This document shows, one piece after another, positions 6,709 to 53,235 of a DNA stretch of 64,000 bases. How positions within the stretch are numbered: the first letter of the stretch is position 1; each line of letters begins with the position of its first letter. Made by a program: the position numbers and the translations under genes. Below the pieces are notes generated by a model, which did no database searches, was not told where the DNA came from, and saw only the letters and a list, made by a program, of their open reading frames with translations. The DNA comes from Eledone cirrhosa (Eukaryota): the NCBI GenBank assembly GCA_964016885.1, contig OZ024742.1:339140001-339204000 (forward strand). Direction: 5' to 3'.

Positions 6709-6758
6709 CAAAATGACCGGTTTCGATGGGTCTGCAAAAGCCATCTTTTCAAATGTTG
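6709..6758 (-). ncRNA. Type I HHR, U3:A8 core variant
   Basis: Reverse strand: caacat-TTGAAAA-gatgg..ccatc-GAAA-ccgg-TC-attttg. Confidence 0.7.
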
Positions 6759-8897
6759 ATTAATATTAAGAAAAATTAATAATACGAAGAGTTAAAATTT
6801 GAGACTTGAAAATTCAAGTATAAAATTCATTGTGGGATTTCATAGCAGTTTTCATCTAGGTAGCAACAACAGGTTGACTGCTGTGTCCCTTTCTGGTAGT
6901 GAATGAGAAGTTATTTGGGGTGTGGGTTATTTTATAAAGGTCAGATTTAGCAATCACCAACTGGCCAGCTGCTGGTCAGTGAGGGGGTGGAAGCAATATA
7001 CATACACATATCTTCCTGTGATGGGTAGGAGAGTGGAGCGTGATAGAAAGGGATTTAGTGCACTTACACCTATATATACACACATACCTTCATCCACACA
7101 TACATACATATACATATACATATATATATATATATATATATATACATATACACACATACATACACACACACATACATATACACACATACACACACACACA
7201 TATATACACATACACACACATATATATATATATATATATATATATATATATACACACACACACACATATATATTCATACACATACATCCAGATACACACA
7301 TACATACACACACACACACACACACATATATATATATACACACATATATATATATATATATATATATATATATATACACACACACACACACACCCCCCAC
7401 ATATATATATACATACACACATACAAACATACACACACACACACAGATATATACACACATACACACACATATATATACACACACACACACACACGCATAT
7501 ATATATATATATATATATACACATACGCATACATCCAGATACCCACATACATACACACACACACGCACACACAATACATACATCCACATGCACATACATA
7601 CACACACACACACACATATACACATACATACACCCACACACAGAGAAATGGCCTTCAAATATATATATATATATATACATACAGACACATATATTTTTTC
7701 CTTAATATAAGAAGTTGGGGCAGTGAAATTAAATACAAGTCATTCTGATCACATTGAGTTCTTCATGTAGATTGGGCCCCGCAACCGACAGTGGTGAATT
7801 CTGTGTGCGCATATATATATAGATATATGTGTGTGCACGTGCAGGGTTTAACATGGATGTGTTGGTCACACAAAGGCATGGTCTGTCAATGAATAAACCT
7901 GATTCTACAGAATTGGTCTCTGGTCTTTAATAGTAGTGATTCCGTGCGTATGTGTGTTTATATTTTATGACAATTCTATTGACTATTTTATGACTATTCT
8001 ATTTTAATTTCACTGCCCCAACTTTTTATATTATGGAAAAAATATATGTGTCTGTATGTATATATATATATATATATTTGAAGGCCATTTCTCTGTGTGT
8101 GGGTGTATGTATGTGTATATGTGTGTGTGTGTGTGTGTATGTATGTGCATGTGGATGTATGTATTGTGTGTGCGTGTGTGTGTGTATGTATGTGGGTAAC
8201 TGGATGTATGCGTATGTGTATATATATATATATATATGCGTGTGTGTGTGTGTGTGTGTGTATATATGTGTGTGTATGTGTGTATATATATGGTGTGTGT
8301 GGTGTGTATGTTTGTATGTGTGTATGTATATATATTATGTGGGTGTGTGTGTGTGTGTATGTATGTGTGTATCTGGATGTATGTGTATGTATATATATGT
8401 GTGTGTGTGTATATATATATATATATATATATATATATCATGTGTGTGTGTGTGTGTATATATGTGTGTGTGTGTAATGTGTGTATGTATATGTATGTGT
8501 GTGTGTATGTATGTGTGTATATGTATATATATATATATATATGTATATGTATGTATGTGTGGATGAAGGTATGTGTGTATATATAGGTGTAAGTGCACTA
8601 AATCCCTTTCTATCACGCTCCACTCTCCTACCCATCACAGGAAGATATGTGTATGTATATTGCTTCCACCCCCTCACTGACCAGCAGCTGGCCAGTTGGT
8701 GATTGCTAAATCTGACCTTTATAAAATAACCCACACCCCAAATAACTTCTCATTCACTACCAGAAAGGGACACAGCAGTCAACCTGTTGTTGCTACCTAG
8801 ATGAAAACTGCTATGAAATCCCACAATGAATTTTATACTTGAATTTTCAAGTCTCAAATTTTAACTCTTCGTATTATTAATTTTTCTTAATATTAAT

Positions 8898-8947
8898 CAA
8901 CATTTGAAAAGATGGCTTTTGCAGACCCATCGAAACCGGTCATTTTT
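8898..8947 (+). ncRNA. Type I HHR, U3:A8 core variant
   Basis: caacat-TTGAAAA-gatgg cttttgcagac ccatc-GAAA-ccgg-TC-attttt. Confidence 0.7.
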
Positions 8948-9054
8948 TATACCCTTTATTATTTCCTTACCTTATAAAATTATGTTTTTTCACAAAAAAG
9001 TATTCTGTCTCTTATATATTCCATGTGCCATTACCAACCTCAATTTTCTCTACT

Positions 9055-9466
9055 TATATATATATATATATACATATATATATATATATATATATACATA
9101 TATATATATACATATATATATATATACATATATATATATATATATATATATATATATATATATATATATATACATATATATATATATATATATATATACA
9201 TATATATATATATATATATATATATACATATATATATATATATACATATATATATATATATATATATATATATATATATATATATACATATATATATATA
9301 TATACATATATATATATACATATATATATATATATATACATATATATATATATATATACATATATATATATATATACACAGTACATCTTTGACTTAATTA
9401 TATATATATACATATATATATATATATGCATATATATATATATATATACATATATATATATATATA
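9055..9466. repeat. (TA)n array
   Basis: Direct reading. Confidence 0.97.
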
Positions 9467-9467
9467 G

Positions 9468-49832: not shown

Positions 49833-52011
49833 TAGTAATAATAATACATTTGAAGACTAAAATCCAAAGAGGGCTCGATAAGGATAAATATATATTAAAT
49901 ATATAAGAACCGTAGAGCAAATATTTATTAAAATAACAGATTAAACTTTAAGCAAAGAATCGCTGCTTTCACCCTCAACGGGATCTTCTGAAACTAACAA
50001 AGTCAATCTGTAAACGCAGAACTGGATATTTCAAAAAACGTTGCAACCGGAGGAAGACAGGAAGACGATACTTTGGTTCGTGGAAACGTTCGCTGGCGAA
50101 GAACGGGAAAAAACGAATAATACGTCATTAATAGGAGCGGTGAAAAACATTTACGCGCAAAGACAGAACCACGTTTATGGTATAAAAGAAGTCGTAGACT
50201 AATGTTCTCTTAGGTGGTGCATAGAGACGTTCTCTGGCAATGAACGAAAAAACGAAGATAATACGTCATATGTGGAGCGTGGAGAACAATAGCACGCAAA
50301 GACAAAACCACGTAAATGGTATAGCAGAAGTCGTAGACTAAAATTCTAACTAGGAGACCAAATGAATCTCCGCTACAGAGTTAAGAACAAAGTAAATAAA
50401 TACAATACAGAAGTAATAGAAATAAATAAATACATACACGCAAACAAAAACGTACATACACAAGCATACGCAAAACCTTACCATAGGTATACAAAACCAC
50501 GCACATATAAATGTGTGTGTGTGTGTATGCGTGTATACAAATAAATAAATAATTATATAAACGTATATAAATAAATAAATATGTATATAACCAACGCACA
50601 CACATACCTACATATAAGTACACGAATGTTCGGAGACGTAAGTCAACTAAAACAAGAAGTACACATATACACACACCCACCATACGTACGAACCTACATA
50701 ATCACACAGACGCAAAAACTCCCGTATACACATAGCCAAACCCTATGTACCAGAATATATAAAATTATACGCCATAACAATCAAATATACGTACGAGAAG
50801 GTATACGTACCTTCACAAAACATACGGGTAGTATATACTTACCTATGCAAATAAGTAAAGGAATAAACAAAACATATACTTAGCTCCCACATCAAGACGT
50901 AAAATTTCCACGTATAGATCGTACTATCCGTTAGGGTATAACGTGGGGCTGTAATACAGGAAAGTTTTGTGCAATTTATGTTTACAAGCCGAAATTGCCT
51001 CAGATTTTTTGTTTAAGATGTTGTCTGTGGCGTAGAGTATTTCCAGGGCCTCAGCGGCGCAGAGGTCACATGGTCTTTTATTTCCGTTATACGATCTAGC
51101 CCTAGCTAGGATCTCCCAGTGTAACTTATATTGGGTGTGGTTGTCTTATAGACTCCAGATATAAGCTGAAAGTGACGTCATATTCCTTCTTAGAGGGTAA
51201 CGAAAAGAATGGGTATGCATGTAAAGACGCTGCTTGAAACTATTGGCGGTTAACCCTATGTAGGCCCTACGGGACGTGGGTGTTACAACCTTACATTTGT
51301 AGACAATGTTACTAGAGAGGCATTTCCCGGATAGGGGGCAATCAGCCCGATTCCTACAATTACAGTTAGTATTAACTACAGGGTTGCACGTGTTCCTACG
51401 GCTAGGTAGTTTAGCTAAATTTGAAGCTGTGATGTTATGTGCAAGGTTAGGAGTCGTAGAGTAAGAAATTTTAATAGTATTTCTATTAAAATTTTTACTA
51501 TATTTATGTGTAGGGGGAAAATGCTTCGTAATAAGGGAAAGAAAGATCTTAGCTAATGGTGTGGCCACCTCCATATTATATGGTGGGTTATACCAACAAA
51601 TGCGACGGGATCTATTTCTTCTAGGTCTATTTTCGTACTCTGTATATGCTACCTTATCGACAAATCCACTTCGAGCAAGAGCTTCATTGTAATAAGTGGA
51701 ATGGTCGTTGAAAATACGCTCGTTGGTGGAAAGACGGGAAAGCCTCAACGAAACGTTTCTTACCAGGTTCTTGGTTATGCTGGCAGGATGGTTGGAATGC
51801 TTACTTATATAATTAAGCGTATCTTCGGCTTTCTATACGGGTAATAAAACCCATTCAATAAATTGAGGGTAACGTCGAGGTAATTAACGACCGAGAGATT
51901 GGCCTCAACCTGTATAGAGAGGTTGAAGCCTTTAAAGAAGGCTGTGAGTTCTTTTCTGAACCTGTCGCAAGCACGAGGTCCGCACTTAGTCATGGTCAAA
52001 AGACCATCGTC
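49833..52011 (-). mobile_element. 5'-truncated PLE (same lineage as 3058-4351): ORF remnant 52011-50931, 3' UTR, pLTR with A4-variant HHR at 49945-49995
   Basis: DDGLL, NYLDVTLNL, WYNPPYN, KHFPPTHKY, CNCR..CPLSGKCL..NIVY, YIGLT..FKQR..H, CDLC; one frameshift and one in-frame stop. Confidence 0.9.
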
Positions 52012-52180
52012 TTCTTTTTCTTCCTTCTCTTCGTTTTGTCTTTCTTTCTTTCTTTTTTCCCTCTTTTCTTTCTCTCTTTCTTTCTCTCTGTATTTTCACT
52101 GCTAGCGTAAACCTCTTCAAATGAAGTTGATGTTTATTACGGTATGTCGAATATATTTATCTATAAAACTGTTTATATTG

Positions 52181-52246
52181 TATTTTGTCTGACGAAGGCA
52201 TAGCATATTGTTAATATGATATCCCCGAAATATATATAATGAAATA
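52181..52246 (+). ncRNA. Type I HHR (family B, somewhat degenerate)
   Basis: tattttgt-CTGACGA-..catatt gtt aatatg..-GAAA-tatata-TA-atgaaata. Confidence 0.7.
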
Positions 52247-52335
52247 AATATGGTTTTATAAATATAGTTTTCCATTTATTTAATATTGTATATATATATA
52301 TATATATATATATATATATATATATATATATATAT

Positions 52336-53235
52336 TCCGCCTCCGTGGTATTTTCTTCGTGGTTATAAGAGGCTTAGCTCTGTTTCTCGACCGTTATATC
52401 GCGTGACTATCTCCCCCTCCGCCTTTTGGGATTCTTTCTCACGTCGTGTAGACGCGTTCTTGAGACTAGTAAAATGAGGTATCCTCTTGATAAGTTGGCA
52501 GACCTCGCAAGGACTCTATATCTTTGATATATTGTTTTTGTTTATGCCACGAAACTACGTAGTCGAGGAATTTAGGAGCAGTTTAGGTATGATACATTTT
52601 ATTACTAATTATATCTAAATGTTTCTTCTCTCTTCATAATGTATTTTTAACTCTGATACTGGTTCAGTCTGGTTCAAACTGAATTGGTCTGTCCCAGTCA
52701 TTCATTGAGCAACATCGGTGAAGTTGGCACCCTTAACTCACAGTTGGGTGCGGATGCATTCATGTATATATGTGTGTGTCCGCATGTATCTGTGTGTTTC
52801 TAAATATATTAATAGCTCCCTCTGGTCGAGCAATCTTTGAGGTGTGGGGACAACTGGAAAGCTTCCATTACTCATACTTCTCGCCTTCTTCACTACCTCT
52901 TCTACGGCCTCGATATGAATACCCCCTCCGCCTCCGTGGTATTTTCTTCGTGGTTATAAGAGGCTTAGCTCTGTTTCTCGACCGTTATATCGCGTGACTA
53001 TCTCCCCCTCCGCCTTTTGGGATTCTTTCTCACGTCGTGTAGACGCGTTCTTGAGACTAGTAAAATGAGGTATCCTCTTGATAAGTTGGCAGACCTCGCA
53101 AGGACTCTATATCTTTGATATATTGTTTTTGTTTATGCCACGAAACTACGTAGTCGAGGAATTTAGGAGCAGTTTAGGTATGATACATTTTATTACTAAT
53201 TATATCTAAATGTTTCTTCTCTCTTCATAATGTAT
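52336..53235 (+). mobile_element. Retrozyme-like partial tandem: about 308-nt direct repeats, period 591, one U3:A8 HHR per repeat, (TA)n flanks
   Basis: 52336-52644 matches 52927-53235; HHR 52482-52569 and 53073-53160: tcctc-TTGATAA-gttggca..tgccac-GAAA-ctacgtag-TC-gagga. Confidence 0.9.

Follow-up and report, generated by a model that had tools for sequence, protein, structure and literature searches.

A 64,000-nucleotide stretch of the Eledone cirrhosa genome (contig OZ024742.1; C3:339140001-339204000 of a 3.0-Gb genome; hereafter the window) was analyzed for hammerhead motifs in which the core heptamer CTGANGA is replaced by TTGANAA. Type I hammerhead motifs, predicted to be self-cleaving, were found that probably belong to terminal repeats of Penelope-like elements (PLEs) and to non-coding derivatives of these elements. 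Their core pair between positions 3 and 8 has likely changed from C:G to U:A on several occasions while selection kept it paired, probably stepwise via a U·G wobble that one lineage has kept. The family-level covariation of the two positions is strong, and from it we infer selection on catalysis.

The window is microsatellite-rich with a GC content of 34% and contains several broken open reading frames (ORFs), whose look-alikes carry RVT_1, HTH_animal and GIY-YIG domains, a combination that corresponds to the architecture of PLEs. Since a Pfam search with five of the PLE-like ORFs returned 0 families, their identity rests on the atlas look-alikes and the motifs. The output of a repeat finder was dominated by microsatellites, and an Rfam scan at E<=1, which was swamped by microsatellite matches, gave no hammerhead among the matches listed (150 of 206). 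The bare heptamers TTGANAA and CTGANGA occur 70 and 45 times in the window, respectively. As the heptamer alone is noise, a descriptor of the three-helix type I hammerhead was used in which positions 3 and 8 were left free. Thresholds were set to a score of at least 22 in the window and of at least 26 in a random sample of 158 evenly spaced 10-kb loci plus the two window flanks, 1.66 Mb in total.

Covariation of core positions 3 and 8

In the 1.66 Mb, 190 matches were obtained (149 CG, 35 UA, 6 other) against 2.0 per shuffle, meaning that 184 of 190 carried either C3G8 or U3A8. Among 328 copies in random loci, 233 were CG, 66 UA (about 20%), 7 UG, 7 CA and 15 other or gapped. Families were counted after clustering, homology recovery and removal of eight false or unsupported clusters (f17, a satellite; f35, f36, f38, f40, f48, f49; window 11829). 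The 48 families sampled comprise 35 with C3G8, 12 with U3A8 and one U3·G8 lineage, while none had C3A8, G3C8 or A3U8. In this sample the covariation of the two positions holds, and mismatched families are rarer than U3A8 families.

Two apparent exceptions among the families were rejected. Family f44, sampled as U3G8, proved to have C3G8 as its core state (12 CG, 2 UG and 2 CA of 16), and the C3A8 state of f45 is due to CpG decay (33 CG, 10 CA and 3 UG of 46 exact matches, hand count). In the family of L047:4758-4844, N7 is a C, which makes C7-G8 a CpG that decays to C3A8 or U7; this decay suggests CpG methylation of these repeats. In the family of the window site at 41943, exact copies with U3A8 number 11,672; C3 occurs in 51 copies, each of them C3A8, so that no C3G8 subfamily was found.

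In the window, 12 matches (7 U3A8, 5 C3G8) were obtained against 0.07 per shuffle. The heptamer TTGANAA indeed occupies the core slot at all eleven sites for which this had been proposed (plus strand: 8904, 31078, 33419, 33734, 41947, 52487, 53078; minus strand: 6752, 15196, 34184, 41868). Eight of them fold as type I hammerheads and pass a relaxed descriptor (type I, three helices, helix I open) with scores of 23.9-32.1. The sites at 31074, 33419 and 33731 fail it and are damaged members of real families. U4, G5, A6, A9, G12, A13, A14, A15.1-U16.1 and H17 are intact in ten of the eleven, the exception being 33731 with its mutated box. In a hand-curated census, U3A8 accounts for 12 of 33 hammerhead sites, and positions 3 and 8 change together at all 33. 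The U3A8 sites and the related C3G8 members of one lineage (lineage X) are:

6709..6758, minus strand: type I hammerhead, U3A8, palindromic stem III, one stem I mismatch; arm of a 576-nt inverted repeat with 8899
8899..8946, plus strand: U3A8 hammerhead, inverted partner copy of 6709
15161..15200, minus strand: U3A8 hammerhead of type I with N7=G and an 8-nt palindrome as stem III; a dimer fold is predicted
31074..31111, plus strand: damaged U3A8 member of the 41943 family (84% identity) with a broken stem I and a degraded stem II
33264..33306, minus strand: damaged lineage X copy with U3A8 in which G5 has become A; overlooked in the original prediction
33419..33458, plus strand: U3A8 copy of lineage X without the 5' strand of stem I
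33731..33773, plus strand: lineage X copy with U3A8, its GAAA box mutated to GAGA
34096..34192, minus strand (the 34098 site): U3A8 hammerhead of type I in which stem II is long and stem III forms a 3-bp hairpin; shares homology with the 52482 family
40469..40514, minus strand: C3G8 member of lineage X, U·U at 10.1/11.1, 73% identity over 222 nt to the 33731 region
40970..41015, plus strand: C3G8 member of lineage X, inverted partner of 40469
41835..41872, minus strand: minimal type I hammerhead, U3A8, of the family with 11,672 exact copies
41943..41980, plus strand: minimal type I hammerhead, U3A8, predicted dimer via palindromic stem III
52482..52569, plus strand: U3A8 hammerhead of type I with a 10-nt palindrome as stem III; a second copy follows head to tail at a distance of 591 nt
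53073..53160, plus strand: second tandem copy, identical to 52482

Stem III is palindromic at 6709, 15161, 41943 and 52482 and a hairpin at 34098, and cofolding predicted dimeric hammerheads for 15161, 41943 and 52482; the one predicted for 34098 is monomeric. Two further candidates were left uncounted: a weak U3C8 match at 51927, just past a PLE ORF, and a weak single-copy U3A8-like candidate at 11829-11946 (plus strand), for which a non-hammerhead fold is predicted.

Core states within and between lineages

The U3A8 sites of the window had been taken as six independent families. However, the 34098 and 52482 regions are colinear upstream of and across the motif (77% identity over 53 nt of the upstream region, E 2e-5; as high in 0 of 200 shuffles). 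Owing to this homology, the six families represent at most five lineages. Both core states were nevertheless found within single lineages. Lineage X includes the U3A8 copies at 33.3-33.8 kb of the window as well as the C3G8 copies at 40469 and 40970. Genome-wide, 3,650 of its 3,762 pattern matches are Watson-Crick paired, and 112 (about 3%) are mismatched (54 U3G8, 58 C3A8); the first 100 matches listed are 51 UA, 43 CG, 4 UG and 2 CA (hand count). Lineage Y likewise has CG and UA subfamilies and, as in lineage X, their flanks can be aligned. Altogether, three lineages contain two core states. In an A-insertion subfamily of lineage X, ten U3·G8 copies occur at six loci (G000:C1:47998766, C2:83744006-83745210, C4:295997301, C4:298466457, C5:35061877 and C14:37497592) and possibly form a second small wobble subfamily.

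To place the core states on a protein tree, ORFs were linked to hammerheads by position, giving 25 rows after exclusion of four near-duplicates, with 7 UA rows from 5 families. On this tree U3A8 requires 4 changes and is polyphyletic, and a single U3A8 clade was rejected by the approximately unbiased (AU) test (p 4.5e-5 with 25 rows; 4.7e-6 with 19 rows after removal of long branches). Because U3A8 is polyphyletic on the protein tree and three lineages show two core states each, it is supported that the core switched more than once. Two window families, 41943 and 15161, are represented on the tree. In 4 loci, a member of the 41943 family follows a PLE ORF at a distance of 1.0-1.5 kb. The link is weak for 15161 (1 locus), of which a homologue in L049 lies 194 nt downstream of a PLE ORF. 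No consistent ORF link was found for 6709, 33419, 34098, 52482 or the lineage with a U3·G8 core described below.

A lineage with a U3·G8 core

While it was checked whether mismatched states at positions 3 and 8 rival U3A8, a family outside the window surfaced (lineage Z), a tandem element of about 610 nt (L092:2520-2661, L149:6392-6531, L161-L180 on G000:C1). Its pattern gave 791 matches, of which 148 carry U3A8 and none C3, leaving 643 with U3·G8. The existence of this family means that positions 3 and 8 do not always change together. About two thirds of its first 100 listed matches come from one 609-nt tandem array, and independent insertions are therefore fewer than copies. This L169 array (G000:C1:81709747-81748687) holds about 65 copies with a 609-nt period. 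Of five copies inspected, three carry a stem III mutation, and the array may therefore have expanded in the manner of a satellite and not consist of selected copies.

Twenty chosen lineage Z loci have stem I, the core, stem II with A·A as first pair, GAAA, an extended stem III ending in a hairpin, and C17. RNAalifold recovered the three-way junction unaided, and compensatory changes were observed in 6 of 20 pairs when lineage Z was aligned with its U3A8 sister group. In 17 U3·G8 loci (79-98% identical), variable columns make up 0 of 38 core and stem positions versus 102 of 510 others (p 3e-4). U4, G5, A6, A9, G12-A14 and C17 are invariant in these loci, and N7 takes three states. This pattern of conservation argues that the hammerhead fold of lineage Z is under purifying selection. 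Among 26 rows of lineage Z and its sister group, 17 are U·G and 9 U:A. In the tree, the U3·G8 copies enclose a nested U3A8 subfamily, and with a sister group that is also U3A8 two changes are forced; by this topology position 8 was altered alone, twice, with U3 fixed.

An ORF upstream of L161 was rejected as belonging to lineage Z, since it is part of another element. Contigs of four public runs covered a lineage Z copy in three of the runs and were uninformative at positions 3 and 8, and the metagenome contigs searched gave no match to lineage Z. A natural U3·G8 core was not found in full-text literature searches, outside of which lay the supplements of earlier surveys.

Mechanism, alternatives and relation to known hammerheads

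In the active hammerhead, the 3-8 pair places the 2'-OH of residue 8 as general acid. Since it is the pair that positions this group, pairing would be kept and not base identity. We propose that the motifs cut the precursor RNA of the element, with selection acting on transposing master copies. The element transcript is predicted to be cut after H17, and for most motifs two tandem copies would be needed that pair via the palindromic stem III; the inverted and damaged copies of the window are likely inert. C:G and U:A would be interconverted by two transitions through U·G, a route which fits the absence of C3A8 and of G3C8, the latter being two transversions away. C3 and G8 are paired in the active conformation (PMC3884650).

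Core state was further associated with stem II. C11.1, part of a canonical G10.1-C11.1 pair, is present in 9 of 12 U3A8 versus 6 of 35 C3G8 families (p 5e-4, uncorrected for relatedness), and C17 in 8 of 12 versus 7 of 35 (p 0.009; p 0.08 in multi-locus families). In lineage X, G10.1 was counted by hand in 48 of 51 UA copies versus 2 of 43 CG copies. U3A8 families with N7=C are rare. A canonical G10.1-C11.1 may compensate for the weaker U3:A8 pair. In many C3G8 families the position that closes stem II is U·U, A·A or C·A; C11.1 is missing in 29 of 35, and non-canonical closure is found at these C3G8 sites of the window:

12431-12488
38732-38772
40970-41015
57365-57410

Going further, lineage Z might be a natural active U3·G8 hammerhead of about 640 copies, a captured intermediate on the way from C3:G8 to U3:A8 by two single transitions, which would explain both the recurrence of U3A8 and the absence of G3C8, with U3A8 depending on G10.1-C11.1 (core-stem epistasis). 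We put this forward tentatively, with slightly less than even confidence.

Several observations speak against recurrent switching under selection for catalysis. When one type III hammerhead was subjected to deep mutational scanning, G3:C8 was the one swap that rescued activity, and all other single and double core mutants were low in activity (PMC9901934); U3A8 and U3·G8 therefore do not confer activity in every hammerhead. In vitro, the minimal hammerheads of PLEs show weak cleavage, and they are thought to act as dimers (PMC4209133). Minimum-energy prediction gives structures other than the hammerhead for 6709 and for the copies of lineage X. The step from C3G8 to U3·G8 itself was seen in no lineage and, given that the sister group of lineage Z is U3A8, this lineage may have reverted from U:A to U·G. 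The association with C11.1 is weaker in multi-locus families (6 of 9 versus 6 of 27, p 0.036), and lineage Z breaks the rule with A·A at 10.1/11.1. Finally, the ORF tree is unrooted, several of its hammerhead-to-ORF links come from one locus each, and terminal repeats may recombine.

The activity data could also be read to mean that the fold is kept for a non-catalytic role, such as reverse transcriptase binding, priming or packaging, and that U3A8 motifs, and U3·G8 motifs above all, have lost part or all of their ribozyme activity. The low activity of core mutants other than G3:C8 in the scan (PMC9901934), the weak cleavage of minimal PLE hammerheads, for which the authors leave other functions open (PMC4209133), and the A·A mismatch at the stem II base of lineage Z are in line with such a role. 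We consider it unlikely, as the unpaired catalytic positions do not vary among the U3·G8 loci and N7 has three states, which catalysis would predict, and natural U3A8 hammerheads are active according to in vitro work cited in PMC3088659. That U3A8 is the neutral outcome of a mutation bias (C to T, G to A) in a genome rich in AT is very improbable. Both changes are GC-to-AT transitions, CpG decay yields C3A8 where N7=C (10 of 46 exact matches in one family), and a few old lineage X copies carry both changes. Neutral decay, however, predicts more single than double changes and is already contradicted by the family counts (0 C3A8, one U3·G8 lineage, 12 U3A8); moreover, mismatched lineage X copies are few and N7=C is rare among U3A8 families. 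Mutation bias may still determine in which direction the changes go. An equally improbable single origin of U3A8 in an ancient PLE, followed by inheritance or terminal-repeat exchange, would agree with the homology of 34098 and 52482, the core heptamer and stem III that 6709 and 41943 have in common, and G10.1-C11.1 and C17 as possible shared ancestry, but is already contradicted by the AU tests, by CG and UA subfamilies with alignable flanks in each of lineages X and Y and by the UA subfamily nested in UG in lineage Z, unless the hammerhead-to-ORF links are wrong and cores were swapped by recombination.

Apart from the hammerheads, the following features were annotated in the window:

3026..4351, plus strand: Penelope-like ORF fragment (look-alikes: HTH_animal, GIY-YIG), with a C3G8 hammerhead candidate 500 nt downstream
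21763..24935, plus strand: Penelope-like RT/GIY-YIG ORF in two frames (RT, reverse transcriptase), with a C3G8 hammerhead 258 nt downstream

At 16498-25224 there are three PLE copies that are closely related (one inverted, two in tandem), with a C3G8 hammerhead about 250 nt past each ORF. A broken element of the long interspersed nuclear element type is located at 54546-57087, where Pfam confirms an endonuclease domain and RT-like frames follow downstream, and fragments of a Pif1-type helicase (Pfam PF21530) at 60337-61846 (minus strand) are probably a Helitron remnant.

The U3A8 core in PLE hammerheads is already known and ordinary. Natural C3-G8 has been described to covary to U3-A8 (Perreault et al., 2011; PMC3088659), and about 1,300 U3-A8 versus about 2,000 canonical-core minimal hammerheads were reported in Schistosoma mansoni PLEs (Cervera and de la Pena, 2014; PMC4209133). 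Contrary to what had been assumed, U3A8 is therefore not uncommon, and the original finding as written was published before. Like the metazoan PLE minimal hammerheads of the latter study, the motifs described here are of type I with a short stem I and a palindromic stem III, occur in opposite-strand pairs and in many families per genome, and include U3-A8 as a large minority; a location in terminal repeats is probable for them as well. In contrast to the portion of that study covered here, both core states were found here within single lineages, together with a conserved U3·G8 lineage. U3-A8 variants and U·U at 10.1/11.1 are shared with the hammerheads of Perreault et al. (2011); the U3·G8 variant, the family-level counts and the stem II association set the present data apart from the portion of that paper covered here. 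The 52482/53073 pair and lineage Z resemble retrozymes of the non-LTR (long terminal repeat) type (Cervera and de la Pena, 2020, PMC7229834; bioRxiv 10.64898/2026.07.22.740005) in being non-coding head-to-tail units with one type I hammerhead each, their units measuring 591 nt and 609-617 nt with longest stop-free frames of 86 and 57 amino acids, respectively. Unlike non-LTR retrozymes (150-450 nt), these units are 591-617 nt long with non-canonical cores and, with about 600 nt and long stem II extensions, they depart from the size and the canonical loop 1-loop 2 contacts of that group. What is new is the stem II association together with the U3·G8 lineage and its conservation.

For the annotation of this genome, descriptors restricted to CUGANGA would miss about a fifth of the hammerheads; the proportion of about a third estimated earlier applies to the window (12 of 33) and not to the random loci (66 of 328, 20%). 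Beyond this, the 3-8 pair has been treated as obligatorily Watson-Crick, and a conserved, multiplying U3·G8 family provides a natural test of crossing between paired states via a wobble. Related natural U·G and U:A versions exist within the same element, which allows a direct experimental comparison, and lineage Z also lets one ask which peripheral features pay for the wobble crossing. If it is still cutting, the U3·G8 lineage would be a natural stepping stone between the two paired states.

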